Assembly: GCA_002633005.1 (NCBI GenBank)
Contig: NMRA01000587.1
Coordinates: 62,001-126,000 of the forward strand
Direction: 5' to 3'
Length of the DNA stretch: 64,000 bases
DNA from: Phoronis australis
Taxonomy: Eukaryota > Animalia > Phoronida
Shown here piece after piece: positions 16,542-53,617 of the stretch. Under the pieces are notes generated by a model. It saw only the letters and a program-made list of their open reading frames with translations. It searched no databases and was not told where the DNA came from. Position 1 is the first letter of the stretch. Every line of letters begins with the position of its first letter. The position numbers and the translations under genes are program-made.

Positions 16542-16588
<47 letters not shown>

Positions 16589-28120: not shown

Positions 28121-28980
28121 CATAGGCGGATTTAGGGGNTAATACCAGTAATTAACATTTCAATGTATGCAGTTTTAGTGTGTTTGGGGGGAACACGGCG
28201 CAATCGAGTATGGCTAGGTACAGGCTCTCCCAGTATATCCCAGGCGACCGGCAGTAGGGCTGCGCACTACGACTCCGTTTCCGTCGCCTGCTTCACTGTG
28301 CAATGAAGAAAATTACTGCATTTTTCAAAGAAAATGGAATCTGAGTGACGATGATAAAACAGAAGCTGCTGGTAAGATGAGAATTTTAATCGAAGCCTTA
28401 GTGAATTACTCAGTAACTCATAATTCTCTCTTTGTCAAACCTTAACTTAAAACGATTTCCAAATCACTATCGCGTCATTAATGCCAACACAAAAAAACGG
28501 ATTTGGTCTTTTGGGCAATTGAAGACTATTCTAAATACAACGAATTTGTTACGAACTGATTGCACAAAATATAAAAAGTGTAATCAGCATTACAAAAAGA
28601 AGTAACTTTCGCGCGCAAACGCTGTGGACCATAAACAAGTAAGTCTCTTAGTATCAAATTAAGAGTGAAATCGTGGCGGTGCAGTGGTAAAGCACGCGCG
28701 CTCTATCCGCCAGGTCGTGAGTTCGAGTCTTCGGTATTTGCAGATTTTCAAGTTTGACACGTTCTCCGTGTCTTTTTTTCTTGGATAATATTTCAGGAAT
28801 CAAGGAAAACACTTGATTTTTAGGGGAAAAAACAGAAAAGTTTTCCTGGGCGGAAGGGGGGCAACCCCTCCCCCTCCCGACCTCCCCCCATTCGGCGCTA
28901 CGCGCATCTACAATCGTGCTTTGCGCAAATGTTTACAGACAAATGTTGCCCCTCCTTGTGATATCATAGATCCGCTGCTG
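28121..28980 (+). mobile_element. hAT-like non-autonomous element carrying a tRNA-derived (SINE-head-like) module
   Basis: Starts CATAGGCGGATTTAGGGG, ends TAGATCCGCTGCTG. Internal 28672-28745 has Pol III A-box-like TGGCGGTGCAGTGG and B-box GTTCGAGTC. A homologous copy lies on the minus strand at 53314-53617. Confidence 0.7.
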
Positions 28981-31900: not shown

Positions 31901-33569
31901 GGAATAAAGTAATGAATATAACTTAAAATGCACATTTTCGTAGAGAACCCACTCATCCGAGTGCCGTATACCGTATACTCACTTTCGTGATTAGTATCCT
32001 CCTGGATCAGGCATCAGATTGCACATTGTTGTGTAGATCGCCTAGAAAGTTCTCAAGCCACGACAGTCTTGCTCAAAATTATGTTCTATTTAACCAATGT
32101 CCAATCGGTTGAACCAAGCGTTAATGATGCCCAAAAGTACACGTAGGCAACAGAAAATCTATCAAGATTTTGCCTAACAAATATATTGACACTTGTAAAA
32201 ACTGAGAGGTTTAACCATACGCCATCGTCTTAAGATCGAGTAAAAAAGCAACTTGCGCGTGAATTCAAGGCACATTTAACTCTCAGAATTAATGAGGTAA
32301 CAACCTAAACCTCCCTAGCACGTGTATGACGTAGGAAAACTGGCAGTCATCATCCAAAACTAGTTGTGAGACAGCTGCTTGTATGATGACCAATACTTAA
32401 ATTTGCTTTTGTTCTCGTAATATTTTTTTATCTAAAAGTAAATGACCGCGTTTGAATTGCCAGGGTGTGGGCGATTTTGTGTACTAATCTAGGTATAACT
32501 TTACTGTTAGATTCGTTTTTCATTCTAATAAGCCCAAAAGGTATCAACAACAACAAGTCCTCATACCACCCTTGAACGACGTTTCGGTCGGTTATTTCTC
32601 ATCTTCAGGGGCAGCATCGTTCGTAGAAGAAAGAGCAAGGATATCTGGTACACGCATGATGGGGTCTTGGACAAAATGAATCCACAAGGTAGCGTTTTAG
32701 CCCTTTAAAAGGAAAAGAAATTATACACACTGCGTGTAGATTCTAATAGGCCCGTTTTCGGTAGGCTAATTCCTTATCTCTGTGATTGCTTGGCTAAATT
32801 AATTATAAATACAAGATATAGCGACGATGTGAATACGAAGCAGGATGAAATATTTTAAGAACGAGTTTTGTGGCGAAAATGATCATCGCAAATCACTGAA
32901 CCGTGTCCTGTATGTTGGCTATCGTTGCGTTATGCTGAGGAATAACACTGCAATGTATGATTCGGGCTATGCGAGCCCGCGAGGAGTCATTAGTGCAAAG
33001 GTCACGTATTTGCAGATTTTTTTGTTTTCACATTTAAAAGTTGTCAATGAATACAACTGAAATTTGCTTAGTTTAGATTATGTTTAAAATAGCATTGTCG
33101 TTTAGTTCCTGCTATACTTTAGCATAGTTAGCAGCATACAAATACAGACGTGCTTCAAACCTGGCCTCTATAAGAGAGCCCAGACAAAACCACGGTGACA
33201 AGCAGAAAGAAATCGCCTTGCCAATCATCCGCTTCAGAATTGTGTGACGTCATTGCTGGACTTGACAGACACCGGCTTAGTAATCGAGACTCGACTTTTA
33301 TTTGCCATCCAAACCAGAGGATTCTGTAAGAGAAGGCTTCTATTAGAAACTCAGGATATAATAAAAGCTAAATCAATGCTGATGAAGTAGACTGCGACGA
33401 TGATAAGACAGTGCTTCCCCATGACTTGGAATCGAACATAGAATCTCAAAGACTGTAAAAACTTGCGCAACGCTCACCATAATAATTATTCGATCTTGGA
33501 CGCGAGCTGTTTGTTCACTCGCCCAAATTGGATTGTTAAATCACACCAATTGCCGTCAAATTTGAAATA

Positions 33570-33915
33570 CTTAAACAAGAAAAATAACCCAGAGATGTTT
33601 TTCAAGTGTTACTGAGTCTCGCAAATTACGAAATGGCCAGGGATAGTTTCTTATCGTAGCGGGTAGACCAGAACAGTGCACCTTTTATAAATTTGAGACC
33701 TACAGCAGACTTGGAATGTTTTTCACTAGCAAGGAAAGTAACCCAAAAGCATTTTTCAAGGGTGACTGAATCATTCAAATTACGAAATAAGTAATTCGGT
33801 ATGTTTCCTCGTCATAGGAAGCGAACTAGAACGGATTACCTCTATAAATTTGTGGCCGAGGCTGAATTCCGACCAGTCTCTCGAATTGACTAAGAGATCC
33901 GCTTCCTTGAGCAAG
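33570..33915 (+). promoter_or_regulatory. Promoter of precursor gene copy 1, tandemly duplicated ~155 bp module with two TATA boxes
   Basis: TATAAAT at 33686-33692 and 33843-33849, each preceded by TTACGAAAT (C/EBP-like). GGGATAGTTTC (kappaB-like) at 33640-33650. The module is single-copy upstream of copies 2 and 3. Confidence 0.6.
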
Positions 33916-36355
33916 ATGAAATTGGTAAGGAGTTTTAAGGTCGATCGTTCATTTTAATTTAATATAGGCAAATACAAGACGACCAGGATTTTGTTTTGGA
34001 AATGATCATATTTTCTTGTTTTGCGATTTGATAAAACTATCGTACAAATTACGTTTGACTTAGAATTTTAAATTGACAATTTCAATCTTTTTGTTGATTT
34101 TGCCGCCTTCTGTTTTCACGGTCTTGACTTGACCAAAATTTGAGTTTCATAAATCAACAAATAACATGGAAACCATTCGCAAAACACATCAGTATTCGTA
34201 TAAATTGTTTGACTGGCACACGACTTCATAAACCTGAAGTTCTGCGATGTTTTTAGATTTTGCTATTTCGTTGTGCACACTCAGAATGTCAAATTCTAAC
34301 AAAATTAGTATAATGTTCTGCTTATTTTAAAAAAGTAGGTTTTAGCAAAACAGTATCATTTTGAATATTGGTTTGAATACATCGGTTTTGCGCTTGATGA
34401 AGTTTACAATTAAAATGAAGCCGGAGCACTATCTGTTTAAAATTCACGCGCTCTAGGTGGCGCTACGTGACGCAAGCTAGTGGCTAGTGAAACTTAGACC
34501 ACATGCTTTGCTTGTAACGGGCCGCGGTATCTCGTGAATATTCGTGATCTCGCCAAACACCAAGAAACTAGCCCAACGGAACGTAGATAAGGGTTGCGTC
34601 ATCAACCGACGCAAGACACTCGCGAAGACTTGTGGGCTCTCGTTTTTGTGACAAAAATTGCTTTAGGAGACGTAATCTAGATTACGTGACCGCTTGTATT
34701 GTCGCAGTAAAATAATCCGTGAATCCGTTTGAAATTGTCTGTATTCACAATTTGTGCTACGTCTGCCTCGTGCAATTGATTTGTTGAGGATGCTGTACTA
34801 AGCAGTATATGTTTTTGCCCAGTTTTCGAGGTGACGACTAAGTACAGTCAAACAACTTATTTAAAATTTGAATTCCAAATCTAATCGTCGCACATGGTGG
34901 ATGTCCAAGTGAGCTTGACTAAACAGTCTAAACTAATTGTGATATCCTAAATCTAATAGCTATAAACAGCGTGTTATAACCAATTATGGTAAAGCAAAAC
35001 GTTTTGTTTTGTGCCAGTCGTATTTTTTGAACTGGTGTTACAAACTGAATCCATTCCGATTTACTTTTTGTTTAAATGGGATTTATTTCAATATTATTTA
35101 TCTGCGTGAGCGCATTTTGCTTTATTCTTAAACGTTTATTAAACGACAAACTTTTTCTAATGATTATTAAATGCATATCCCCTGGCTGAGGAGTGTTGGA
35201 AATACTGTCCTCGCATACCAGCACCAAATGACCAACTCCATGTTGGCTTGTGTGAACAATTAAGTGATTCAGTTATTGACTTTTGAAGTACATGTCTTTT
35301 TAGATCTTCGTTTGCGCTCTCCTGGCTTGTGTAACCGGCCTGCTCCAAGCTGGTGATGCCACAAAGTACGACATCCAGGATGGTAACGTCGATAACGTCG
35401 ATGACACAAATCCCAGCGCACGTTCCTTAGACAAGGAGGAGGTGGTTGAAGCAGGCGAAGAAGATGCTGAGCAGTCAGACATCAATGACCGGTCATTCAA
35501 GGATTCGGTTGAAGAGGACGACAAGGAATCCGATATGTCCGCTCGCTCAGAAACTGACGACAGCGGCAGCAACAGCGCAGACGAAGACGACCAGAAGGTT
35601 GCTGAGCAGAAGAGGTTGTATCCGGGGACTTGTCCGGTCACCAGGAGGCGCTATATTTTGTATCTCCGCATTCGTGGGCGCATTTACCGACTCCGCCATG
35701 TATACTTAAGTCACTGGTGTCGTTATCATGGGTAAGTAAGGCGTTTTAACCCAAGGGTAATTTGAATGCACTGGTAATAAATAGTCAAAAATAAAACGTA
35801 AACAGGGCACTTTAATTACCTTGGCATTCTGTTTGATGCCTACTGCACATGTGAATATTGTCAATAACAATGCCGAATTTTGCTATGGTTATTTAATTAA
35901 AACGGAAATATATTTTTCGACTTTCACAGAAGGATTAAGAAGACTATGATTTTTTTTGTTACATTTAGTGTCACGCCAAGTTTTTTTATGCAGATTTCGA
36001 TGTTATTGATCTTTGTGATTGTCCAGATGCTCTGAAAACAGCGTAGTTTTGCACTGAAAAAATGGCTCACTGGATGTCGATGTCAGTTTTACAAAAGTTA
36101 ATCGGAAACGCTTGTTAATCACGTGCTTAATTTTTTAGATGTTCGTCATGTACATGTACTATGAAAAATTAATCCGCACATGGTCTTAAATAGATCGATT
36201 GTTTTTCTATTTACAGACGAAAATGCAGAAGATCCTACAGATGGGGAAAATGTTACACTCGCCGGTACCGCATCCACACCTCCGCCTATTCCTACACACA
36301 TCGCAGATGGTACAGAGTTTGGTTCATCATTCCAAGATGTTGCTGTGTCGTTTAA
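33916..36355 (+). CDS. Secreted prepropeptide copy 1 (191 aa): signal peptide, acidic propiece, KR, cationic Arg/Tyr-rich 7-Cys cystine-knot-like domain
   Basis: Exons 33916-33924 (ATGAAATTG|gtaag), 35304-35731 and 36217-36355, GT-AG, phases 0 and 2, 576 nt. MKLIFVCALLACVTGLLQAGDA, then an 85-aa D/E-rich pro region ending AEQKR, then LYPGTCPVTRRRYILYLRIRGRIYRLRHVYLSHWCRYHGRKCRRSYRWGKCYTRRYRIHTSAYSYTHRRWYRVWFIIPRCCCVV. Exons, frame and splice sites are conserved in copy 3 while introns diverge. AATAAA at 36501. Confidence 0.88.
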
Positions 36356-37330
36356 AGTAGCGGCGTAACAACAGAAGTCACACGCCAACACCACGCATAG
36401 CCAAAAGTAAAACCGATCGCAATGAAATATGTTATTCTTCCTTATAAGATTTTCGTTTTATCTCAAGTTGTCGTGCGTGAATTTTCAGCATTTGCCATGA
36501 AATAAACGTACAACAGCTTTCAGTATTACTTGCGAACTGTGTATCAAAGCCAAGGATTGTTTTGTGAAAAAACTAAGGTCGCATGAACGTAAAAATTCCA
36601 AACTTTGCTGGCAACGGTTACCACGTAGTACTTCTTGCTTGTTGCATGATTGTTAGTTCTTCGTGTAATTCAATCACAATAAAACCAGCTTCATTCGCAC
36701 CACGTTGTAGTTTTAATTTTTATCTTGAACAAGTAATGAATGACAAACGTAATATCCCTATCTAGTCACTAAGATACCATTCCTGGATTGCTAGATCCAA
36801 TATTTGGGGAAAAGGGTCACCCTTTCAACGCGAAGCACCGTATTTCATACGAAAACACAAACCTGTAAAAACACAAGGTGTCATTTAATATCATAACATT
36901 GCAGAAATAGACTGCAAATGCGTTGAAAAACTGTAATCTCTCTAAATGGAATCTGAATAAACCATACGGGATCGATCAGCTCGTTATCTGCACATCACAG
37001 GCCTTACACAACTCCTAGTTTGAATCAGAAAAATTATAAGATCAAGCCTTTCGTGCCTCACACGTACTTATACATGTATATAAATAAATAAATAAATAAA
37101 TAAATATATAATATAAATGTCAGAGCTTTTATTTGAATCATGAAATGGGTTGTCTCCTTTCCGCAAAACTCATTGTATTGTCCTAAACATGTTACTGAAG
37201 GTTTTTTTGTTTTAGGAACAACTTTAAAAATCTGGAACCGTTAAAATATAGCAACATTTCAAACCCAAACACGAGCAGAGCCTCTTTTTGAGTTGTTCAG
37301 TGCTCTTTGCACTCATTACCATTCTTGCAT

Positions 37331-37475
37331 AAGCCACATAGAGCATCCTGATGGGTTAAAGCCACATAGAGCATCCTGATGGGTTAAAGCCACATAGAGC
37401 ATGCTGATGGGTTAAAGCCACATAGAGCATGCTGATACGTTAAAGCCACATAGAGCATCCTGATGGGTTAAAGCC
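37331..37475. repeat. 28-bp minisatellite, 5 copies
   Basis: Unit aagccacatagagcatcctgatgggtta starts at 37331, 37359, 37387, 37415 and 37443. Only one copy at the paralogous site ~45001-45030. Confidence 0.95.
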
Positions 37476-40195
37476 CCAAAACAGTCCATTTTAGCGACAC
37501 TCGATACCAATGACACAACATACATGTACGGCACACAGTAAATGAGAAAATGTCGGGGGCGCTCGTAAAGCTACATGTACTTGCCTGTGAGTTTGGCGAT
37601 ATCAATGATTACCAAACAGACAAGTGAACTTACACTGTACTGAGTACAGCTACGTGTACGCTAGCAAAATGACTGCAACAGAAAAACTGGATGGCTATGT
37701 AAGATAAAACGGAACGATCGACGACTGGGTTTGTTTTTAGCAGGGACTACAGCATGTAGCTGATTTCCAATCTCGTTTGGAACACTTCAGGGCATTTCTC
37801 ATAACCTTGAATTTTCCCAGGAAGGTATTTGATACATGAATCTGCACAAGATCAGTTCCTGGTTGGGGTTAAACTTTTCTAAATTCAATGGGAGCACGTC
37901 GGGCATTTTCATCGATTCGAATTTTCACTCAAACGTGTTTCATATCTCTCTGTGCGCATGGGCGGACTGCAGTCACACGTCGAAACATGTGTATTTCAAA
38001 CTGGAGAATAATTGGCTGTATACTTAAGTTCGCACTTGCGCAGATATGAAACTCCGCTGTGTACTTCATCAGCCTGGATTTTCTTATCGAAAGCTTGGTA
38101 ATATTTCATAGACGTAAAAACCTCGCTTGGCCGTGGGGCTTCCGTTTGACGACGTGCCTCGCTTGTACACGAAATCGCTCTATCGACCAAATTGAATGCT
38201 AATGCAAGTGCAGAGTTTTTCGTTGTGAATGTTTATTTTGTATCCAAAACAAGACATTTGATACTTCTATAACCCCACAATCACACACACAAACACACAA
38301 TCACACAAACACACAATCACACAAACACACAGACATTAACGTTATTTTCTCCCTGAGCCTCCCGCCGATGTTTACGTAGAGAAGAAACCAATCAGTTCGG
38401 GAGGGCAAATATCTGACGGCCAAAATCCTAGCTAGTACTCTGCCCTGCCCCCCAACTCAAAATCCTGGATCCGCCCCTGTCAGTGACAGATTAATATTTC
38501 TTGGGATATGACATAAGTTATTTACTTTATCGTAAAATACGCTTAGAATTATACAAAGCCAAAACTATGCTGAATGCTCTGTGATTCCTTTCGCACAAGG
38601 TACAGTACACTCATCTTACTGTGAAATGCCAATACGCCTTCAGAAAACATTCGTGGTTAAAATTCTACAGACGATTTTAATTTGTAGCCACCTTAGTCGC
38701 ATATCATTTGCACAAAGCTTCGATTAATTATTTTCCACTCAGTAAATCTGTACAGTGATCTCTAAATTAGTGTCCCACTTGTATAATGCTTATGACTTTT
38801 GAAATATTTTATTAAAAAATGTCCTATATTTCTCGGGTTCCTTTCCAGTTTGAGTTAAGAATCCTGTGGAGGAATGGCCGGAGACAAAGTGTTTACATTT
38901 AAAAATATAATACAAATTTATGCTTATTACAATTTCTCAGACCATAATATCTACTGTAACAAACATTGGCTTTAATTCAATTTTCCACTAAATCATTACT
39001 TGTTACCGTTTTCGTCAAAAATCATTTAAAAATCTATTATCATCACCATTGAAAATAGATAAACAGATGAATGTGCCGGTCATTGAATTTTACAGCAATT
39101 TTGCGTATTTGTTATTATTTTACTGCTGAACACCAGCTGTTCTAGGTTTTCTCTTCATCAAAAATAAAATCAGAAAAGTACAAGTATAGTTAGGATAGCG
39201 GTCAAGAGTATGGTGACATATTGCCCCAAAGATGGTTGTTTTTTAAATTGAGATCATATGAATGAAGTAGAACTACATATACATCTGTACTTGTAGTTGT
39301 GTGAGACTGCTGGCCTTCAACGCCTCTGTCAGGCGTGCTACCTTTGAGATATATAAACAATAATCGTTTAATATTCATGTATCATAACACGAATTGCTTT
39401 AGGCCTGAACAGAGTTCAGTTAGCCTTTGAGCGACACCTCTTTCACAGCGCTCGTTCTCACGTACAAAACTTTACGGCTGTAGACTTCTTAAAGTTATTA
39501 GCTTGGTTCAGAGCCATAAAACTGCAAAATCCGTGGAGTTTTTGATAATTCAATTACTAATGGTCAATTCTCTCTGTTGTCTGCCAGAAATTTGATGAAA
39601 TCAAGGTCGATGTTTTTCACATAAATTACTGTTATTTAATTCTCATGTTTTGGCTCAGCGGCAAAACAATGGGCTGCTGCCGCTGAGCAAGAGGCTTCAA
39701 TGTCGTGCTCTGCTGCTCGATTGCGTAGCTTTACTTTTATCGCCGTGAAAGTACATACGTTTAAGTGAAACATTTGATCATATGATCCGCAAATCTATTT
39801 CCGAAGAGTAACAAAACCTCACTTAAACAAAAGTACAGTCTCCGAGATGTCAATGTCATTAAAATCTGTTGTCAATTTACACCAATCTTATTTTAGCACG
39901 GCGTTTTTGCAAGTCATTTCTCGAGCCAACTTCAAGTGTTAAAGATTTATTTGTTTGCTTCTAACTACAGTGTATGCTAATGTACAGCAGGAACTAAACG
40001 ACAACGCTGTTTGAACAAAATCTGCGCTAAACAAAGTGCAGTTGTATTCACTGACAACTTTATGAAAACTTGAACAAAAAGCTCTGCAAATAGGTAACCT
40101 TTGCACTAATAACGTACCTTACAGGCCCGCATAGCCGGCATCATTCAGTGTTAGACTTATTGGACACGGTTGAGTGATTTTCGGCGGATCATTAT

Positions 40196-40922
40196 CTCAT
40201 TCGTAGCTGATCCCGCCATATGGCGTGACTGTTTGTTCTCACTCATGGCCTGATGCCGTCTGGAGGCGTTATCAAAACAATGTATCTCACAGGCGGATCA
40301 CGCCTTCAGGAAGGATAGAAGGCAGCAATTTATTGGCTTAAGTTTAAGTATATCTAGGGTATTCCCAGTTTTCTATCCAATGAGGATTGAGATACCAGAC
40401 TCTGTATTAACTTATTGTTTGTGAAGTTAATGCCTATTGGCGTATTACACAGATATCATCTGCTGCTCTCACAGTTCTGGAAGTTTTTATTATGGAGGAT
40501 AGTATGAATAGTGATGGCACTGAGTGGTCAGATTTAGATACAGATTTCAGGGATCTAGATTGTAATGACTGAGGATATGCAACACGGAAAACTTTCCTGG
40601 CATGTTTCCTGGAAATTTAAGTGGATTATTTGTAAACAAATGTCTTCGTTTCTGGAAAACAAAAAGTAAAACTGCTTGTTCAACCCTTTATCATTTTTAA
40701 ATTTTAATTAAATTTATAGCAACACAAAGCTCATTTACTCAAAATGTGTTACTGAAAATTTGTTAAGTATATAACCACTAATGACATAGTAACGAGTTTT
40801 TAATTATGTGCAGTGACTGTGACCTAGTTCTGAGCGAAATACCCTCCGACTACAAGGGGGTAGACATTCCACAGCCAGGCCAGTAAGAAATTTATACCAT
40901 ATGGCGCTCAGGATCGAATGAG
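40196..40922. mobile_element. Non-autonomous piggyBac-like DNA transposon (727 bp), TTAT target duplication
   Basis: Left CTCATTCGTAGCTGATCCCGCCATATGG; reverse complement of right CTCATTCGATCCTGAGCGCCATATGG. TTAT on both sides (40192-40195, 40923-40926). Paralogous empty site with one TTAT at 49980-49983. Confidence 0.85.
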
Positions 40923-41654
40923 TTATAGCCACAAAAATAAGTTCTTAAAAATATTCGTCAATTTTCAGAATACTTCGCATTCATATCGTCGCTATATGTT
41001 GTGTTTTTAACTAATTTGCTCATCAGCCACAGATATAAGGACTTAGACTGCAAGTTTCACTTGAAAGCGTTCTTAGAAGAACGCACACGGGTGTATGGTT
41101 AACTCGTAGAGGGCTCTTGGATTGCAGAATGCCAGAAGTACGTTTAAGACAAGCAACTGTAATAATACCGCAAAACGTGCAATAGAAGCCAGGGTGTTTA
41201 CTAATTTCAGACGTCCTAAGACCCGAGAGGGAGATTTTTATTAGAGATCCGGCAAACAGAAAAAATGCCTTTGACAAGCATCTGCTTCAGAGTCGTGTAC
41301 CGCTATTGCTGAATGTGGTAAACCCTCGCTACATGTAGTATTGGAGATCCGACGTTTATTAATTTCAGTACATCTAAACCCCGGGCTTACGTACGAGAAG
41401 ATCTTCTATTAGAAACCCGTCTTAGCTTGATGCTGAAGTTATCGACTACAATGTTGAGCCAACACTTCGCATGGGCGACGCACCATACATGGTTGGGAGG
41501 GGAAGGGTGGGGTGGGGTGGGGTGGGGTGGGGTGGGGCTATTGCTCGAGAGCCACTGATCATCACGGTCATCACAAAACAGATTGCGCAACCATACTAAC
41601 CCGCTGACTGCAGAGATGTCAAGAAAACAAGGATAATAACCCTAGGTCTTTCAA

Positions 41655-41815
41655 GGGTGACTGAATCTTGCGAAATTGCGAAATAAATTGTCGGGGATAA
41701 TTCCTCATCGAAGCGGGTCAACCAGAACAGTGCATCTCTATATATTTAAGACCTCTGGTTAATTCAACCAGTCTCTCATACCGACTAATTAAAGAGCTTC
41801 CCTTCATTGAGCAAG
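41655..41815 (+). promoter_or_regulatory. Promoter of copy 2: tandem C/EBP-like sites, kappaB-like site, TATA
   Basis: TTGCGAAATTGCGAAAT 41668-41684, GGGGATAATTCC 41693-41704, TATATATTT from ~41739. Confidence 0.55.
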
Positions 41816-44106
41816 ATGAAATTGGTAAGAAATGTTTATGTTGATTTTTCTTTTTAAGCTTATATTATAACCAAGAATTTGTTCGTCGTGTCGAGAAGAA
41901 AACATTTTAAAATGGCAATTTTAATCTTCCTGCCTTGAACTGTCATTAACCAAGTTTATTTTTTGATTAAAACATCTCTGCTTCATGTATGACGCAGTCA
42001 CGTTGATAGCTTTAGCTAACTTGAAGTTAACGGAAAACAATTAGAACAAACCTCCCACAAGAGTAATTTCTAACAGCAATAACTTTTGAAAATTAAAATA
42101 CTTCACATTCTTAAAGGAATATGATTGTAAGTTGCATTTTTAAACAAATGACTTCCTATAGTTTTTCTCAAAGTTAAAATTTACTTTGAATTCGCTTGAA
42201 TACTCTAAATCTGTTCTTACATATTTAGAGAAAAAAGATTATTTTCAGAAACCGACGGATAAATAGAATCATTTTAAAAATAAAATATCTACTCCCAAAA
42301 GATTTTCAGCCGTCACACAACTGGCAACGCAAGTTACTCGCTAGTGGAACCTGGCTAGGTCACGTGCTTTGCTTGTAATGCGCGTTGAGAAACTAGACCA
42401 ACGGAACGTACAGTAGCCTATGGTCGCGTCATCTACAGACGCAAGACACTCGCGAAGTGCAACCACGTGCTTCGCTTGCCATGTGTCGCGAAGACTTGCG
42501 TGGTCACGTTTTTCTCATAAAAATGCTCTAAGAAACGGTGTCAAGGTTACGCGATTGTTATTATCAACAGTCAAAAAATAATCCGTGAATCCGTATGAAA
42601 TAGTCCGAGCTCAAAAATTGTGCGACTGGGTCGGGTTATTTAATGAACATGTGAAGTTTGCCAATCTAGAATGTAATATCTATGTAATTAATTTCATTTA
42701 ATCGCAAATTTACGCATTATCATTATTATAACCTATCCATTCGTTGTTCGTGCACTTGGCTTGACTGCTTGAGAATAAATATGAATTAAACAGTACGTCT
42801 AGTTTAAGGAATTAAACAGTACGTTTTGCCCAAGTTAGAGGTGGCGACTAAGTACAGTCAGCAAAAAACTAACTGAATATTTGAATACAAAATACAACAG
42901 TCGCACTTGGCGGACGACCGAGTAGGCTTGACTAAACAGTCTTAACAAATCGCGATATCCTAAACCCAGTATTAATCTAAGACAAGGTATGATACACTGT
43001 AAAAACTCATGGCAAAGCAAAATAACTGCTTTGTGCTAGAGGTACATAATGTTTCTTTTGAGTCAATATTTTAAAAATGAAATACATTTTGATTTTCTTT
43101 TTTTGTCTAAAAATGAAAATTATTTCAATTTGTTATGTCGCCTGAAGGCAGATGTTACTTCAAATGCAGTTTGCTTCATTCTTAAACGTTGAGCCGAGGT
43201 ATTCTTTGTGCCTTTTTTCTTACTTTTATCAAACGCATGCCCCTGATGGAAGCGTGTCACAATTAATAGGTATGTCCTCGCAGACCAATACCAGCTACTC
43301 AGTGTTGACTTATTGAATAAGTGTTTCAGTAACTGACTTTTGAAGTGCATGTCATTTTTAGATCTTCGTATGCGCTGTCCTCTCGCTCCGAAACGGACAA
43401 ACCCAAGAACGCAGACGACCATAAGGTTGCTGAGCAGAAGAAATTGTATCCGGGGACTTGTCCGGTCTACAATAGGCGCTTTATTTTATATCTCCGAATT
43501 GAAGTGAAACTTTACCGCCTCCGCCATGTACACTGTATACCTAAGTCACGAGTGTCGTTACAATGGGTAAGTAAGGTGTTTTAAAACAAGAGTAAGTTGA
43601 ATCTCCTTAGCAACTAGTAAAAACATGAAACGGTCATTTTACAAGGCATTCTGCTCGATGCGTTTGGTACATGTTTTTCCATTGTGCTATTTTTAGTGCA
43701 ACTGTCACGCCAAGTGTAGTTCAGTTGCTCTGATAACAGCGTAGCTTTGAATAACATTGTCTCGCTGAAAAAATTAGTACGTTGGTATTTGCTCCTTCCG
43801 GGCCACAATTTGACAAAAGTTTATCGCTAGCACCTGACTGTCCAACACATCCTTAATTGAAATCTAATTTATGCAAATTAGCCGACAAATTGTGTGGGGA
43901 TTGGTCGTACACTACAGAGCATTATCTCATATGGACTTAAATGGTTCGTTTGTTATTTTACTTACAGAATACAATGCAAATGGTCCTATAGGCCGGGAAA
44001 ATGTTAAACTCGCCGGTACCGAATCCACACCACCGCCTATTCTTTCTCAACTCGCAAATGGTACAGAGTTTGGTTCATCAATCCAAGATGTTGCTGTGCC
44101 GCTTGA
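41816..44106 (+). pseudogene. Pseudogenised copy 2 of the cationic cystine-knot-like prepropeptide
   Basis: Exon remnants 41816-41824, 43362-43565 and 43968-44106. A 206-nt frameshifting deletion relative to copy 3 removes most of the signal and pro region (reads MKLIFVCAVLSLRNGQTQERRRP*). Also KR to KK, a 7-nt insertion near 43531 and an in-frame TAA at 44005-44007 (TAC in the other copies). Confidence 0.9.
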
Positions 44107-45608
44107 ACAGAATTGATATGCCGACACCACGCCTAGCCAAAAGTATCACCGATCGCAAGAAATCTATTATTCTTCTTAATAACATTTTCGTTTAATGTCC
44201 AGTTGTCATGCATGTATTTTCAGCATGTGCCACAAAATAAACATACAACAGCTTTCAGTATTATTTGCGAACTGTGTATCAAAGCCAAGGATTGTTTTGT
44301 GAAAAAACTAAGGTCGCATGAACGTAAAAAATCCAAACTTTGGTGGCAACGGTTACCACGTAGTACTTCCTCCTTGTTGCAGATGATTGTTAGTTCTTCG
44401 TGTAACTCAATCACAATAAAACCAGTTTCATTTGCACCACGTTGTAGTATTCATTTTAACTTGAACAAGTAATGAATGACAAACGTAATATCCCTATCTA
44501 GTAAATCAGATACCATCCTGGATTGGTGGATCCAATATTTGGGGGAAAGGGTCACCCTTTCAAACGAGAGCACCGTATTTCGTACGAAAACACATACATG
44601 TAAAAACACAAGGTGTCATTTAATATCATAACAACTTTAAATTGCAGAAATAGACTGCAAATGCGTTGAAAAACTGTAATCTCTCTAAATGGAAACTGAG
44701 TAAACCATACGGTATTTATATGTTTACATGTGTGAAATATAAATATTAGAACTTGAATCATGAAATCAAATGGATTATTTCCTTTCCGCAAAAATCATTG
44801 TGTTGCCTTAAACATGTTACTGAAGGATTTTTATTTTGGGAAGAACTTTAAAAATCTGGGATTATCATATGCGACACGCATTTCTCGGGATGCAGGGAGG
44901 AGTTTGACCGTTAAAATATAGCAACATTTCAAACCCAAACACGAGCAGAGCATCTTCTTGAGTTGTTCAGTGCTCTTTTCACTCATTACCATTCTTGCAA
45001 AAGCCACATAGGGCATCCTGATGGGTTAAAGCCCCAAAACAGTCCATTTTAGCGACACTCGATACGAATGACACAACATACATGTACGGGAAAATGTCGG
45101 GGGCGCTCGTAAAGCTATTTGCCTGTGAGTTTGGCGATATCAACCAAGCAGGCACGTGAACTTAACCGTACTCAGTACAGCTACGTGTACGCTAGCAAAA
45201 TGACTGCAACAGAAAAACTGGGTGGCTATGTAAGATAAAACGGAACGATCGACGACTGGGTTTGTTTCTAGAAGGGACTAGGTGATTTCCAATATCGTTT
45301 GGAACACTTCAGGGCATTTTTCATTACCTTTAATTTACCCAGGGAAGTATTTTATACATAGAGTGTATATCTGCACAAGATCAGTTCCTGGTTGGGGCTA
45401 AACGTTCCTAAATTCAATGGGAGAACGTCGGGTATTTTTATCGATTCAAATTTCCACTCAAACGTGTTTCGTGTCTACCGCTGCACATGGGCGGACTGCA
45501 GTCGCACGGCGAAATAAGTGTCTTTCAAACTGGACAATGATTGGCCGTACAATGAAGTTCGCACATGCGCAGATATGGAACACCTCTGTCACGGTACTTC
45601 ATAAGCCT

Positions 45609-45750
45609 GGCGTGCGTTCAGTAGACGCTAGGACCTACGCTAGGACCTAGCTAAAACCTGGTCAAAGTCACGTGTTCTTATTTAAAATACACGGTAATAT
45701 CTCTCGTAATCTCGCGAAGTCTTGCTTTTTAGCGTTACTGAACGGGAGGC
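45609..45750. mobile_element. ~140 bp MITE-like insertion, same family as 2204-2355
   Basis: Near-identical to 2204-2355. Absent at the paralogous site ~38066-38085 (catcagcctggattttctta). Confidence 0.85.
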
Positions 45751-48289
45751 TGGATTATCTTACTTAGAGATGGGTAATGTTTCATGCTATGTGATTACGT
45801 GCATCTGTAATACAGTCACTTCTTCTACACTTTGGTAGTATTGCAAAAATTATCGTTGTGCACTGTTATTTAGGCCATAATACCTCGTTTAAGCATCAGT
45901 TTTAAAGAGGAAAACGTGAAAGCTGAGAAAATTCCTCATGCGGCAATGTCACAGATTTTATGCGCCAGATATCATTGTGAAATACGCGAGTTACTTAGCG
46001 TGTGATAGCGTCCGGTAACAATAGGGTCACCACGGATTACACCGCGCGACACTCGAATCTTGCTTTTATTACCCACAAAAGGCGCACACATCCGTCAGCA
46101 TGTTTGCTGCCTTGTTTTCGTGCCTATTGGAGTTCCACATGTTGTTTATAGTTGTTTGATTCCTTGGAAGATTTTCTCTGCGGCATTACTCCATTCGTCC
46201 TTCCAGTGTCAACTGGGTTTCACTGATGTGCTGTGAGCTACAACTTCGGCGTGAAAAAGTTTGATAACTTCACAATACTAGTGGATGCATGATTTGACTG
46301 AGTTCTTCGTCTTTCTGACATCAATGCGAGACACGAAAATGCGAAGTGAGTGGGTAAACAAGTTCGTCGGGTTAATTTCGAGCCGAACAGAATTCCCTTT
46401 CTTGAAGAAAACCGTTCAATTTTGGTTTGAACGGCTGAAATCAAGAATATGTCCACGGCCCCTCGCCAACTTCCAACATGATTTGCGAAAATGTGCCTGA
46501 TTTCCAAAACGATGTCACGATCCTTTTTAGATCCGCGACAATGGAGAGTTCTATCGTCATGAAATCCGGGGCGGCCTTATTGTCTCGTGCGTTGGCCCAA
46601 TGAGGGAGTCAAGTGACGTCGACACCAAAATAAAATGGACATGATGAAAAGTTTTGCGTCTGTAAGGAGGTTTCAATACGACTGCATTGGAGCATTAAAA
46701 TCAAAATTGTTTCATCATTTTCACATTCGGCGTTAACTCTTCCGAGTTAAGATTAGGCAGAAAAAATTGGTAAATAATTCAAGAATTTACGACCCTTCGC
46801 CCTACGCTTGACATAATAAAATCCACAAAAATATTGGCCCTCTAATGACGAAATTGAATAATAATGCAAGTGCAAAGTTTTTTCGTTGTGAATGTTCACT
46901 TTGTTTCCAAAACAATACCTTATACATCTCTATTATTCCTCAATAACAATCACACACACAAACACACAGAGGAAAACATTTTCTCTCTGAGGCTACAGCC
47001 GATGCTTACGTAGAGAAGAAACCAATCACTTTTGTTGAAATTCAACATCTTTCCCCTTTTGTTGATAATAATATTTTTTTCATCCTACAGTACATTTTCA
47101 ATTCGCTTTTAAAATCTGGAAAATATGGAGGTTCATAATAACAATATTTTAGCCGATAAATTACTTAAAGTTGACGATTTCATTAGAAAATTCACTTTTG
47201 CCAAAAATACAGATCAATGTTTTTTGTGCTACGAATTGCGTTATTTATTTTATCGCAAAATACACTAACATGTAGAGTTGGACAAAGCCAATAGATATGT
47301 TGAATGCTCCATGGTTCCTTTTGTACAGAAGGTACACATATCCGACTGGGAAATGAAAACACGTCTTCAAAAAATATTCGTGATTTATAACCATCTCAGT
47401 CGCATATTATTTGCACAAAGTACATAGCTTTTATAAATTATTTGCCACACTGTAATCCACACAGTGATCTCTAAATAGTCTTACACTTGTCTAATGCTTT
47501 CGATTTTTGAAGTAACCTTTTAAAATAAAAAAATCCTATATATTTCGTGTTCCTTTCGAATTTGAGCATAGAATCTTTCAAATAGGAGGAATAATCGGTG
47601 ACCAAATGTTTACATTTAAAACTGAATTACTTAAAGAGTTATGCTTAATACAAATTTTAAGACCACAATATCTAGTAAACACACTTGGCTTAAAATTAAT
47701 CTTTCCATTAATTCATTACATATTATTAACTTACCATTTTCGACAAAAATCATTTAAAAGTCTAATACCATCATAGTTCCATTTAGATAAAAAGAATAGT
47801 CTCCTCTTAATGATTTTCCGTATCCAGTAAATACGAATTTTGTAAAATTTCTTTCCATGTCGAATGATGATCCTTGCCACTTTTAACGGATTTCATGAAA
47901 TGCTTGTGCACATTTGATGTTAACTGAATGTGCCGTTTATTGAAGTTTACAGCAATTTTCGTATTTGCAGCCATCTTTTATTATTTTACTGTTGAACACC
48001 AGCTGCTCTAGGTTTTCTTTTCATCAAATATAAATCCAAAAAAATTACAAGTATACTCCAAATAATAGTTACAAAGTAGGAAAGGGGGCAAGAGTATGGT
48101 GACATATTTCCCCGAAGGTGGGTGTTTTTCGACCAGCTGCTGCTGGCCCACCGTGTGGAGAGATCCTGAGCTTAATGGGCCGAAATCTTGAGGAAGCACG
48201 GCGCTCAGCTGACGATTGCAGTTGGCCGTGGAGCACAACCATCTATCTCTGTGTATTTAATTCTACTGAATGAAGTACGACTACAAATA

Positions 48290-49095
48290 GCAAGGGGGAA
48301 TGTATTGAAGTAGTCCGCACAAAAGTGTGTAAATAAATTTTAAATTTTCCCAGCGCAGCAATTTTATCAACTGTTAGAGGTGATATGGGTCGTTACTCCT
48401 TGATTGCATACCAACTTCCTAGAATTGTGAAATATCGGCTAAAACTATTAAAAACCGATGCATCAAAAATTACATATCTTTGCTATGAATGGCAGTACAA
48501 TATGACGGAAAATGTTGATAAACCTTGCTGGGTTAATTATGTTAAGAAATTGCTATTTCATTTTGGTTTTGGAGAAGAATGGGACAATCAGGGTGAAGGT
48601 TCCGAGACAAGCTTCATATCACTTTTTAAACAAACATGCCGGCAAAGATATTCCTGAGCAAAAACTGGCAAGAAATTTTCAGCAATTCGAACAAACTGGA
48701 AACTTACAGAACTTTTAAGTTAAACATATATTTTGTAAATTATTTAGAAGTAATTGAAATGTAAATGTTAGATCTGATATGGTAAGATTGAGATGTTCAG
48801 TGCATGCACTAAAAATTGAAAAAGTGTAGACAATTGAAACTTAGCACACCAGAAAGATTATGCCCTCTCTGTGTTAGGCTATGTGTCGAGTCAGAATATC
48901 ATTTTGTTACCGAATGTCAATTCTACGATGAACTTAGGAAACGGTATTTGCCTGCATGGAGCTACAACAACCCCAATGTTGCAAAATTCAACAGACTCAC
49001 GACTATGGTAGAGTTTGACACCTACCTGTAATATATTTGATTGTTTGATTGTAACAACGACCGGAGGTCTAGTTATTGAATAAAAATATTTATAT
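48290..49095 (+). mobile_element. 5'-truncated, degenerate non-LTR retrotransposon 3' end (ORF2 C-terminus, RTEX-like)
   Basis: Broken ORFs with VRGDMGRYSL...VKYRLKLL...WVNYVKKLLFHFGFGEEWDNQ and ERLCPLC...VESEYHFVTECQFYDELRKRYL (CCHC motif of LINE ORF2 C-termini). AATAAA and AT-rich tail at ~49079-49097. Absent at the paralogous site ~39270-39300. Clade call is tentative. Confidence 0.85.
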
Positions 49096-50374
49096 ATAGT
49101 TGTGTGAGATTGCTGCGCTTCAACTCATCTCTTTGTCAGGCGCACCAACTTTGGAAAGGATACAATAGTTGTTTAATGATTTATGTATCATAACACGAAC
49201 TGCTTTAGGCCTGGACAGAGTTCACTTAGTGAGCGGCATCTCTTTCACAGCGCTGGTTCTCAATGACAAAATTTTACAGGAGTACATGTAGACTTCTTAA
49301 AGTTATTAGCACGGACCAGACTAAAACTACAAAATCGTGGTGTTTTTATGATTCAATTACAAATCGTCTATTCTCGTCGATGTCTGCCAGACATTTGCTG
49401 AAATCATGACTGCTGTCTTTGCCCTTAGAATACTGTTATACAACTGATCGTGGGTTTTGGCTCAGCGGCAAAAAAGTTGGCTGCCCTGGCTGACCAAGAG
49501 GCTTCACTTCCGTGCTCTTCTACTCGAGTGCGTAGCTTAACTTTTCTCGCCGTGTATGTACGTTAGTGAAACATTTGATCTTGTGCTCCGCATAACTATT
49601 CCCGAAGAATAACAAAACCTTACTTAAACAAAAGTACAGTCTCCGAGATGTCAATGTCATTAAAATCTTTGGTCAATTTACACCAATCTTATTTTGGCAT
49701 GGTGTTTCGGTAGGTCATTTCACCGGCCAACTTCAAGTGTTAAAGATGTATTTGCATGCTCCTAACTATGCTAATGTATAGCAGGAACTAAACGGCAGTG
49801 CTATTTGAACACAATCTGCGCTAAACAAAGTGCAGTTGTATTCACTGACAACTTTGTGAAAACAATAAGTTCTGCAAATAGGTGACCTTTGCACTAATGA
49901 CGAACATTGCAGGCCCGTATAGCCGGCATCATTCAGTGCTTTACTTACTGGGCACGGTTGAGTGATTTTTGGAGCTACATTATCGCCACTAAAGTAGTTC
50001 TTAAAAATAATCGTCAATTTTCAAACTACTTCACAGTCACATCGTCGCTATATGTCGTGTTTCTAACTAATTTGCCCAGCAATCACAGAGATAAGGAATT
50101 AGCGTTCAAGTTCCACTTGAAAGCGTTCTTAGAAGAACGCACACGTGTGTATGGTACACTCATAGAGGGCTCTTGGATTGCAGGAAGCCAGAAGTACGTT
50201 TAAGATAAGCAAATGTAACAATACCGCACGAGAGAATGTATATTTACACTGTAGCGCGAGATCATCACGGTCTGTTCACTCCAGCAAAACAAATTGCGCA
50301 ACCACACTAACTCACTGACCGCAAATGTGAAATACTTAAACAAAACAAGGAAAGTAACCCGATGTTTTTCAAGG

Positions 50375-50533
50375 GTGACTGAATCTTGCGAAATTGCGAA
50401 ATAATTTTTCGGGGACAATTCCTCATCGTAGCGGGTCGACCAGAACAGCGCATCTCTATAAATTTGAGACCTCTGGTTAATTCAACCAGTCTCTCATACC
50501 GACTAATTAAAGAGCTTCACTTCATTGAGCAAG
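50375..50533 (+). promoter_or_regulatory. Promoter of copy 3: tandem C/EBP-like sites, kappaB-like site, TATA
   Basis: TTGCGAAATTGCGAAAT 50386-50402, GGGGACAATTCC 50411-50422, TATAAAT 50457-50463, about 75 nt before the ATG. Confidence 0.6.
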
Positions 50534-51558
50534 ATGAAATTGGTAAGAAGTGTTTATGTTGAGTGTTCTTTTTAAACTTAATATATTATAAACTAGAATT
50601 CGTTCATGTCTAGAAGAAAGCATTTTAAACCGGTAATTTTAATCTTCCTGCCTTGAATTTTCATTAACCAAGTCTAATTTTTGATTAAAACAACTCTGCT
50701 ATGTACGTAGTCACGTTGACAGCTTTTAGCTAACAATTTGATGTTAACGGAAAACAATTAGAACAAACCTCCCACGAGAGGAATTTCTAACAGCAATAAG
50801 TTTTAAAAAATGAAATGCTTCACATTTTTAAAGGATTTTTACCGACTTGCTTTTTTAAACAAACGACTACTCATAGTTTTTCTCAAAGTTAAAATTTAAA
50901 TTGAAACAACCGTGGACGAATTCGCTTGAATACTCTTAAGATGTTTTTGCCAATTTAGAGAAATAATTATTTTCAGAAACCGACGGATAAATAAAAACCT
51001 TTCAAAATAAAATTTCTACTCCCAAAAGTTTTTCAACCGTCACACAACTTGGTAACGCAAGTTACTCGCTAGTGGACTCTGGTTAGATCACGTGCTTTGC
51101 TTGCAATGTTCGAGAGTATCTCACAAATAATTGCTCTGAGAAATTTAAGACCAACGAGCGCAGCCTATGATCGCGTCATCTACAGACGCAAGACACTCGC
51201 GAGTAAACGAAGAACAACCACGTGCTTCGCTTGCCATGCATCACGAGAAGTCGCGAAGACTTGCGTGGTCACTTCTTTCTCACAAAAATGCTTTACGAAA
51301 CGGAGTCAAGATTTACGCAACTTGTTAGTAACAGCAGTCAAGAAATAAGCCGTGAATCCGTATGAAATTGTCCGTGCTCAAAATTTGTGCGACGGAGTGT
51401 GAATATTTAATAAACATGCGAACTTTGCCAATTTAGAATGTTATATCTATGTAGTGAATTTCATTTAATCGCCAATTACGTATTATTATTATCATTATTA
51501 GAATTATTAGAATTATTATTATTATTACTATTATTATTACTATTACTATTACTATTAC

Positions 51559-51604
<46 letters not shown>

Positions 51605-53180
51605 ACCTTTCCACTCGTTGTTCGTGCACTTGAATGCTTGAGCACGTTGTACTAAGGATAAAAATGAATCAAACAGTGTGTCTAGTTAAAGGAATTAAAC
51701 AGTACGTTTTTGCCCAAATTCGAGGTGGCGACTAAGTACAGTCAGCAAACAACTAATTAAATTAAATATTTGAATACGAAATGCAACCGTCGCACTTGGC
51801 GGATGACCGTGTAGGCTTGAATGAACAGTCTAAACAAATCGCGATATCCTAAACCCAGTATTAATCTAAGAACAGGTATTAAAACCACTCATGGCAAAGA
51901 AAAATAATTGCTTGGTGCTAGTAGTACATACATATTTCTTTTGGGTCCGTGTTAATAAATGAAATACATTTTGATTTTCTTTTTTTTTTCTAAAAATGAA
52001 ACTTATTTTAATTAGTTATGTGGTCTTAAGGCAGAAGTTACAGCTTACTTCATTCGTAAACATTTATTGAAGGACTTGAGCCGAGGTATTTTTTGTACGT
52101 TTTTTCTCACGTTTATCAAACGCGCGCCCCTGACGGAGGAGAGTCAGAAAACATGTACAAGCAGAACAATGGCAGCTACTCAGTGTTGGCTTAGTGAATT
52201 AGTGTTTCAGTTACTGACTTTCGAAGTACATGTCTTTTTAGATCTTCGTATGCGCTCTCCTGGCTTGTGTAGCCGGCCTGCTCCAAGCTGGTGATGCCAC
52301 GAAGTACGACATCCAGGATGGTAATGTCGATGATACAAATCCCAGCGCACGTTCCTTAGACAAGGAGGAGGTGGTTGAGGCAGGCGAAGAAGATGCTGAG
52401 TCAGATATCAATGACCGGTCATTCGAGGATTCGGTTGAAGAGGACGACGAGGAGTTCGAGCTGTCCTCTCGCTCCGAAACTGACAAGCCCATCAACGCAG
52501 ACGACCAGAAGGTTGCTGAGCAGAAGAGATTATATCCGGGGAATTGTCCGGTCTACAAAAGGCGCTTTATTTTGTATCTCCGAATTGAAGGGAAACTTTA
52601 CCGCCTCCGCCATGTATACCTAAGTCACCAGTGTCGTTACAATGGGTAAGTAAGGTGTTTTAACCCAAGAGTAAGTTGAATCTCCTTAGCAACTAGTAAA
52701 AACGTGAAATGGACATTTTACAAGGCATTCTGCTCAATGCGTTCGGTACATGTGTACATTGTGTTATTTTTAGGGTGTGTGCCGAGTGTTGTCCAGTTGC
52801 TCTGACAACAGCATAGTTTGGGAATAACATTTTTCTCGCTGAAAAAAATAGTACGTTGGTGTTTGCGCCTTGCGGACCATAATTTGACAAAAGTTTATCG
52901 CTAGCACCTGACTGTCAAACACATCCTTAATTGAAATCTAATTTATCCAAATTAGCCGACAAATTGTGTGAGGATTCGTCGTATACTTCAGAGCATAATC
53001 TCCAATGGATTCAAATGGGTTGATTGTTTTTTTACTTACAGACGAACGTGCAAAAGGTCCTATAAGCCGGGAAAATGTTACACTCGCCGATACCGAATCC
53101 ACACCATCGCCTATGGTTTCTCAACTCGCAAATGGTACAGAGTTTGGTTCATCATTCCAAGATGTTGCTGTGTCTTTTAA
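50534..53180 (+). CDS. Secreted prepropeptide copy 3 (183 aa): signal peptide, acidic propiece, KR, cationic 7-Cys cystine-knot-like domain
   Basis: Exons 50534-50542, 52242-52645 and 53042-53180, GT-AG, 552 nt. Mature region LYPGNCPVYKRRFILYLRIEGKLYRLRHVYLSHQCRYNGRTCKRSYKPGKCYTRRYRIHTIAYGFSTRKWYRVWFIIPRCCCVF. All indels versus copy 1 preserve frame. Confidence 0.88.
51482..51603. repeat. (ATT)n/(ACT)n microsatellite in intron 1 of copy 3
   Basis: About 40 trinucleotide units. The paralogous site in copy 2 (~42716-42730) has only cattatcattattat. Confidence 0.95.
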
Positions 53181-53247
53181 AGCGGCTGCTGAAGAACAAA
53201 AGTGATATGCGAACACCATCGTTATGCATAGCCAAATGTGAATGAAA

Positions 53248-53313
53248 NNNNNNNNNNNNNNNNNNNNNNNNNNNNNNNNNNNNNNNNNNNNNNNNNNNNN
53301 NNNNNNNNNNNNN
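53248..53313. other. Assembly gap (N run)
   Basis: 66 consecutive N directly after the copy 3 stop region. Confidence 1.
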
Positions 53314-53617
53314 ATGGGGGGAGGTCGGGAGGGGGGTTTGCCTCTAAAAATCAAGCATTTTCCTTGATTCCTGAAGTATTATCCAAGAAAAAAAGGCAAA
53401 AAAAAAAAACACTGAGAACGTGTCAAACAGGAAAAAAATGCACGTCTCAATGAGTCGAACTCATGAGCTGGCGGATAGAGCGCACGTATTTTACCACTAC
53501 ACCATCACGACTTAGCTACAACTCTCATAGTTACTAAAAGACTTACTTGTTTATGGGCCACAGCGTTTGCGCGCGAAACCTACTTCTTTTTGGGCCCCTC
53601 CCCTAAATCTGCCTATG
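53314..53617 (-). mobile_element. Second, internally deleted copy of the hAT-like element with tRNA-derived module
   Basis: Reverse complement begins CATAGGCAGATTTAGGGG, then matches 28595-28830 (ttcgcgcgcaaacgctgtgg...gcgctctatccgccag...gagttcga...cttggataata...caggaatcaaggaaaa). Confidence 0.75.

Follow-up and report, generated by a model that had tools for sequence, protein, structure and literature searches.

A tandem gene family for putatively secreted, strongly cationic proteins with a Spätzle-like cysteine frame and a possible role in direct defence

Introduction

What would an animal-type genome use clustered genes for small, extremely basic proteins for: signalling, building or defence? 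The question is raised by a tandem array at 33.6-53.2 kb of a 64,000-nucleotide (nt) stretch of contig NMRA01000587.1 (assembly GCA_002633005.1, positions 62,001 to 126,000 of the forward strand), called here the window; all coordinates are those of the window. A sequence-only reading had described the array as a family of secreted Spätzle-like cystine-knot precursors and had suggested that they are immune effectors. We found that the gene family is real and expressed, and apparently undescribed. As to its use, we lean tentatively towards a Spätzle-derived, convertase-activated and polyanion-binding defence protein, employed in bulk and not as a Toll ligand.

Genes and precursors

The array consists of three units, with start-to-start spacing of 7,900 and 8,718 nt and an identity between units of 75-83% (in aligned blocks, intergenic DNA counted in). 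Every unit carries a three-exon gene with canonical GT..AG introns in phases 0 and 2, and the 9-nt first coding exon that had been proposed is present in each. Three occurrences of the gene had been claimed; there are indeed three tandem units, but only copies 1 and 3 are intact, copy 2 being broken. The intact genes encode proteins of 191 residues (copy 1, exons 33916-33924, 35304-35731 and 36217-36355) and 183 residues (copy 3, exons 50534-50542, 52242-52645 and 53042-53180).

Translations of copies 1 and 3 have the prepro layout described earlier, namely a hydrophobic N-terminus (taken for a signal peptide by hydropathy), an Asp/Glu-rich propiece, a Lys-Arg (KR) site and a cationic domain of 84 residues, and the precursor is likely to be secreted. 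The hydrophobic core of the signal ends near residue 17, with which signal lengths of 19-22 residues are all compatible. Our recount matched exactly the earlier hand count for the 84-residue mature domain of copy 1: 20 Arg, 2 Lys, 12 Tyr, 4 Trp, 7 Cys and no Asp or Glu. The mature domain of copy 3 has 14 Arg, 6 Lys, 1 Glu, 11 Tyr, 2 Trp and 7 Cys; aromatic residues make up 20%, and Arg plus Lys 24-26%, of the mature domain.

The charges of propiece and mature domain are -20 and +22 in copy 1 and -19 and +19 in copy 3, which leaves the whole proprotein near neutral in both cases (isoelectric point, pI, of 7.7 and 6.4). The mature pI is 10.9; the propiece has 9.7 kDa and a pI of 4.05, the latter being the lowest value that the calculator returns. 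In eosinophil proMBP the mature protein has a pI of 10.9 and the pro-part 9.9 kDa and a pI of 3.9, and according to the proposal of its authors, the acidic part renders the toxin innocuous during transport (PMC2189086, as far as its available text goes). The two charges cancel in both intact copies, as they do in proMBP, and the propiece may act here as a mask.

The mature domains of copies 1 and 3 are identical at 64 of 84 positions, with all seven Cys invariant. The mature part diverges faster than the rest: nonsynonymous divergence (dN) is 0.165 there and 0.062 in signal plus propiece, and the ratio to synonymous divergence (dN/dS) is 0.54 and 0.35, respectively, each value coming from two sequences. 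These selection data do not discriminate among functions.

Expression and splicing

RNA runs X1-X4 were aligned to copy 1 and runs X2-X5 to copy 2. Reads confirmed that both introns of copy 1 are spliced at the junctions predicted: junction 33924>35304 (intron 1) was found in 152 reads of X3 and 247 of X4, paralogue reads counted in, as the read-matching threshold was 88%; junction 35731>36217 (intron 2) was found in 17 and 26 reads, respectively, and in one contig each from X1 and X2. Stranded reads covered copy 1 on the sense strand and almost solely in its exons.

We observed a large difference in expression between samples. At one diagnostic place there were 6,300 copy-1-type reads in X5 against 8 in X3 and 16 in X4 of the same study, or 570 per million against 0.6 and 1.4 (~400-900-fold), and the type accounts for ~0.4% of X5 bases; these figures are rough, being taken from partial-fit reads, whose loose ends in X5, a run aligned to copy 2, match copy 1 sequence. 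Reads of the copy-2 and copy-3 types stay at 2-8 per million. Run X2 agrees, with a word depth of ~24,000 for the copy-1-type contig and 28-55 for other types, contig depth being a poor measure of abundance. Run X1 yielded a single contig of depth 21, in which 11 of the 11 listed substitutions are common to X2 (5 of 11 are found in X3/X4); this suggests carry-over or a source shared with X2, and because all its listed substitutions recur there X1 was not counted as independent evidence. Copy 1 is thus expressed at the level of an effector, not of a cytokine, and the most cationic copy is the upregulated one.

Copy-2-like transcripts are also present, and they carry none of the three lesions of the assembled copy 2; the latter is therefore a dead allele or a dead paralogue of a live type. 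At least two more expressed paralogue types lie outside the window, as seen in reads of X3 and X4 at 35332 and 35722-36245. One type from outside the window has a differing start of signal and propiece (114 reads in X3, 172 in X4). By hand translation, two types known only from reads retain C-x6-C-x8-C and the Gly at +4 after Cys II, with most intervening residues changed.

Search for relatives and prior descriptions

Sequence searches were made with exon-encoded pieces (halves of 37-45 residues, or exon 2), a format that distant relatives could escape. As far as these pieces reach, the protein belongs to no known sequence family: searches with them were empty in protein databases, Pfam and PDB. 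Word searches of 5.8 billion proteins gave no match to residues 100-143 of exon 2 (protein lengths 78-251) and none to exon 3 (protein lengths 80-2000); a phmmer search with exon 3 of copy 3 against 1.84 billion representatives gave 0 matches at E≤0.001, and exact look-up found 0 of 3 pieces. Against PDB sequences the exon pieces gave chance matches only (E of 0.055-0.85), and no viral contig matched them. With metagenome contigs one search had no match and another gave two 16-residue matches, one of which (L001) was rejected, as it lies within an unrelated longer reading frame.

Five 7-residue motifs of the family were absent from the 8.09 million PMC papers and 357,187 preprints searched, and a supplement of PMC8557429 and one of PMC10674772, the latter a survey of nemertean toxins, had no family motifs either. 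Topic searches of the literature showed no description of such a family; supplements and subscription journals could still hold one.

Cysteine frame and predicted fold

In both intact copies the gaps between successive Cys are 28/6/8/28/0/0. In Tenebrio TmSpz-like the domain spans residues 168-269 with Cys at 175, 215, 222, 236, 265, 266 and 267, hence gaps of 39/6/13/28/0/0, and six of these Cys form the knot while one serves dimerisation (PMC8509142; numbers as printed, in the part of the paper available). Both domains begin 5-7 residues ahead of Cys I and finish two residues past the last Cys, and the II-III gap of 6, the IV-V gap of 28 and the terminal CCC are common to the two. The Spätzle-type frame noticed earlier is supported by these positions, by a lead in the ESM Atlas and by two predicted hairpins. 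Nor is the 'one-residue-shorter' CCC end special to this gene, as TmSpz-like, printed with Cys 265, 266 and 267, gives it a Spätzle precedent. When seven Cys were placed randomly in 84 residues, a loose Spätzle-like pattern appeared 45 times per million and a strict one 0 times, for pattern widths that were chosen after the data.

In the ESM Atlas the three top clusters for the exon-3 half were Spaetzle (0.81, 0.80 and 0.79), followed by an NGF/Spaetzle cluster, and 10 of the 10 best family-bearing matches fell in one clan; with scores below the 0.9 mark we treat this as a lead only. Exon 2 gave no usable match there. AlphaFold, with the halves modelled separately (pLDDT 70.6 and 63.9), predicted a single long hairpin in each: one joins Cys I to Cys II, the other Cys IV to the CCC; as modelled, they would occupy the finger positions of a growth-factor knot. 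Foldseek ranked Aedes Spz1C first of 15 matches to the second hairpin, at a non-significant E of 5.9. Folding the two halves as a two-chain complex, for which alignments were not used, gave a score of 0.01, which is evidence neither way. Of the checks by Pfam, AlphaFold and Foldseek that had been proposed, all made here with halves, the hairpin in each half and the top rank of Spätzle are leads for the knot; Pfam was empty and the fold matches were not significant.

Other observations speak against membership of the Spätzle/neurotrophin family or give it no support. In Pfam none of the 4 exon halves matched any family at E≤10, PF16077 and PF00243 included. VIA-align did not confirm the Spz1C match of the second hairpin, and the fold search with the first hairpin matched no knot. 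The neurotrophin knot has a conserved Gln (PMC2586362, available text); the mature domain of copy 1 contains no Gln, and the sole Gln of copy 3 adjoins Cys II at a variable site. Compared with Spätzle as described in the available sources, the domain also has no space for the Trp-loop.

Could the domain be a new disulfide-linked β-sheet fold, its Spätzle-like spacing having arisen by chance? The exon halves have no significant match in sequence or structure, and the missing Gln points the same way; still, a real Spätzle protein has the same x6, x28 and CCC spacings and the same two domain ends, random placement of Cys rarely meets a Spätzle-like pattern at the widths chosen after the data, and the ESM Atlas and Foldseek each rank Spätzle first. 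We regard a chance resemblance as improbable. Judging from spacing and models, the mature domain is very probably a growth-factor cystine knot, in which disulfide I-IV threads a ring made by II-V and III-VI (PMC4079206, PMC9427763, as described in the parts available). Its Spätzle/neurotrophin ancestry is likely, at a lower level of confidence, and the domain is filed as Spätzle-like, not as a member of the family.

Proposed function and alternatives

If the protein is a defence effector, it could work as follows. The precursor would enter the secretory path, where the propiece would mask the charge of the mature part while the protein folds and is stored, in the manner suggested for proMBP. 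The knot bonds would be I-IV, II-V and III-VI, leaving the middle Cys of the CCC free for a dimer bond, and the precursor would perhaps dimerise via this spare Cys while still masked. A convertase would then cleave at KR and free the mature domain, predicted to be a rigid β-sheet protein rich in Arg and aromatic residues that binds polyanions. Its Arg together with Tyr and Trp may bind lipopolysaccharide, anionic lipid or sulfated glycans, and the bound protein would agglutinate or permeabilise microbes on a surface or in body fluid. We consider direct defence the most likely use because the most basic copy is the one expressed at an effector level.

A structural or adhesive secretion is the alternative to be taken most seriously, although we think it unlikely. 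Such a protein would be stored neutral and cleaved on release, and its Arg/Tyr-rich β-sheet would coacervate with polyanions, bind chitin or become cross-linked through Tyr; gel, tube, cuticle, egg coat, wound plug and glue are candidate products. Arg/Tyr-rich proteins serve as marine adhesives, and the mature domain has the aromatic and basic composition given above. Gland products typically show such a pattern, ~0.4% of the bases of one sample and almost nothing in two others; expression this high and this sample-specific would suit a structural secretion just as well as a bulk effector. There is a precedent too in coagulogen, whose knot resembles Spätzle and serves clotting in horseshoe crabs (PMC2586362, available text). 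On the other side, the domain is compact, non-repetitive and framed by disulfides, and it comes with a putatively removable anionic mask of matched charge, a design known from cationic cytotoxins (PMC2189086, available text). Moreover, the paralogues differ in surface residues and in charge, and are present or broken depending on the copy. Such divergence and loss of paralogues are commoner in defence genes.

A divergent Spätzle/neurotrophin ligand of Toll, of a Trk-like or of another receptor, with a basic surface that merely tethers it to heparan sulfate, seems to us improbable. The prepro layout, the basic cleavage site and the cysteine frame are those of Spätzle and neurotrophins, and the copy-2 and copy-3 types are expressed at a low, constant level. 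According to the available text of the sources, spiralians can have many Toll-like receptors (TLRs), up to 24 in one phoronid, with their ligand unknown (PMC8609888), and a Spätzle orthologue was not detected in the nemertean Lineus ruber (PMC9835746). Against this, expression of copy 1 far exceeds the usual levels of cytokines. Between Cys I and II the domain has 11 residues fewer than TmSpz-like, and this stretch is predicted to form a tight hairpin, with no room for the Trp-loop by which Spz1C contacts Toll; and copy 1 lacks any acidic residue, whereas Spz1C forms a Glu-Arg salt bridge to Toll5A (PMC9427763, available text).

For a deterrent of skin or mucus, or a prey-directed cytolysin, acting on animal cells with the same likely knot scaffold, one can cite the likely secretion, the putative mask, the high basicity, the tandem amplification and the sample-specific expression, as well as the toxicity of MBP to helminths and cells (PMC2189086, available text), but the motifs are missing from the nemertean toxin survey supplement (PMC10674772) and from the full texts searched, and we hold this use to be very unlikely.

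For the direct defence use that we prefer, a more specific evolutionary account is that a Toll-ligand or neurotrophin knot was converted into a propiece-masked, cationic direct weapon, in a probably spiralian lineage from which Spätzle is reported missing; this we find less likely than not.

Organization of the array and other features of the window

All exons of the array are on the + strand. Copy 1 has a TATA-like box at 33843-33848, with counterparts at 41739 (copy 2) and 50457 (copy 3); RNA reads start just 3' of this box, and read ends accumulate at 33891. The coding part of exon 1 (33916-33924, three codons) is followed by the phase-0 intron supported by junction reads. Exon 2 (35304-35731) contains the remaining signal peptide, the acidic propiece, KR at 35610-35615 and, from 35616, the first half of the mature domain with Cys I and II and predicted hairpin 1. 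Exon 3 (36217-36699) contains the second half, with Cys III and IV, the terminal CCC and predicted hairpin 2, then the stop (36353-36355) and the 3' untranslated region (UTR); AATAAA is at 36678 and poly(A) follows 36699, 21 nt downstream of it.

In copy 2 the coding part of exon 1 is at 41816-41824. A deletion of ~206 nt takes most of the signal and propiece out of its exon 2 (43362-43566), and the frame, shifted by it, runs into a stop after 23 codons; a further 7 nt are inserted near 43527. Exon 3 (43968-44436) has an in-frame stop at 44005-44007 and AATAAA at 44415. KK stands where the other copies have KR. Copy 2 is a pseudogene in this assembly.

Copy 3 has the coding part of exon 1 at 50534-50542. 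Its exon 2 (52242-52645) holds the signal, the acidic propiece, KR and the first mature half from 52530, and copy-3-type indels were seen in reads; exon 3 (53042-53247, stop at 53178-53180), with copy-3-type junction reads, has its 3' UTR truncated by an assembly gap of Ns (53248-53313). Since the array abuts this gap, it may be longer, with extra copies hidden there; the sequence beyond the gap has no resemblance to the unit or to the remaining 3' UTR of copy 3.

Several repeats accompany the array. The promoter block of copy 1 is tandemly duplicated (33557-33701 and 33730-33965), both parts matching the promoters of copies 2 and 3, which have one each. Just ahead of the array there is an inverted partial copy of intergenic DNA (32765-33146, alike to 39948-40150, 40928-41049 and 49747-50103), perhaps a relic of the origin of the duplication or a dispersed repeat. 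The whole array is bracketed by an inverted pair of a ~250-nt repeat (28593-28830 and 53337-53592, separated by 24.5 kb and 78% alike), which probably represents a dispersed mobile element. Two simpler repeats, one of 28 nt in five tandem copies and the other a TAT microsatellite (37331-37470, 51480-51605), are each enlarged in one unit only. A kB-like motif is situated ~45 nt 5' of the TATA box in copy 2 (41695-41706) and copy 3 (50411-50422) and is degenerate in copy 1; these motifs were rejected as evidence, being not above background.

Elsewhere in the window there is an exon similar to core-1 beta-1,3-galactosyltransferase (2858-3487, - strand; Pfam Galactosyl_T and Fringe). Its identity to the 120 relatives listed is ≤60%, the first 32 organism-named matches being molluscs, and a tree with 30 of these 120 gives it a long branch that lacks support. 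These matches point to an animal host, probably a spiralian. A multi-exon cytochrome P450 gene occupies about 11400-18120 (+ strand), with ordered Pfam p450 pieces at 12166, 12964, 14272, 15548, 16747 and 17890. At 55094-55204 the two nearly perfect 55-nt arms of an inverted repeat flank a loop of 1 nt.

Significance

If both the knot and the activity are true, a fold known from signalling (Spätzle, NGF) and clotting (coagulogen) would also serve, as its third use, in a direct effector, having converged on the design of proMBP; antimicrobial proteins would gain a new structural class. It would also suggest that fast-evolving relatives of Spätzle have been overlooked outside arthropods, and the family bears on whether non-arthropod protostomes retain Spätzle-like genes unseen by BLAST and Pfam. 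The Lineus ruber result (PMC9835746) and the TLR-rich spiralians (PMC8609888), both as given in the available texts, would add interest if the host is a spiralian. In practical terms, the domain would be a small scaffold, locked by disulfides, for antimicrobial action or polyanion binding, and it comes in natural variants of +19 and +22 that differ greatly in expression; such variants of graded charge simplify tests of structure and activity. Were it a structural secretion instead, it would still be an undescribed dominant secretory protein.

Comparison with known systems

The Spätzle-1 knot (PF16077; TmSpz-like, PMC8509142; Aedes Spz1C, PDB 7b1c) likewise comes as a signal, a prodomain and a C-terminal domain with seven Cys. 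In contrast to Spätzle as described in the available text, the mature domain here has 84 residues instead of ~102, with loops I-II of 28 instead of 39 and III-IV of 8 instead of 13. Further differences from Spätzle are the net charge of +19 to +22 with 0-1 acidic residues, the short, strongly acidic propiece ending in KR, the bulk expression and the lack of a Pfam match.

Coagulogen is larger, has more disulfides and is not known to carry a long acidic mask. With the exon halves it gave no PDB sequence match, and it was absent from the fold-search listings of the halves. According to the available text of PMC2586362, it is a Spätzle/NGF-like knot that is used in bulk after proteolysis, not as a receptor ligand, and that functions without dimerising.

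With the precursors of invertebrate antimicrobial peptides the family has a common layout and charge asymmetry. These precursors (e.g. coral damicornin) consist of a signal, an acidic pro-part, a dibasic site and a cationic Cys-rich peptide. The mature peptides mostly have 20-50 residues and defensin-like, hairpin or inhibitor-knot folds, whereas here we see 84 residues with the spacing of a growth-factor knot. The two kinds of knot, inhibitor and growth-factor, share no homology (PMC4079206, available text).

The domain is not homologous to MBP, for which toxicity is known, while here it is predicted by analogy. MBP is a mammalian granule protein with a C-type lectin fold. Pfam detected no C-type lectin domain in the exon pieces, and each half of the 84-residue mature domain is predicted to be a single β-hairpin. 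The likeness to proMBP lies in an Arg-rich domain of pI 10.9 placed behind a pro-part of ~9-10 kDa and pI ~4, with a precursor near neutral (PMC2189086, available text). In its charge design, then, the protein resembles proMBP and the antimicrobial precursors with an acidic pro-part; in its build it probably resembles Spätzle.

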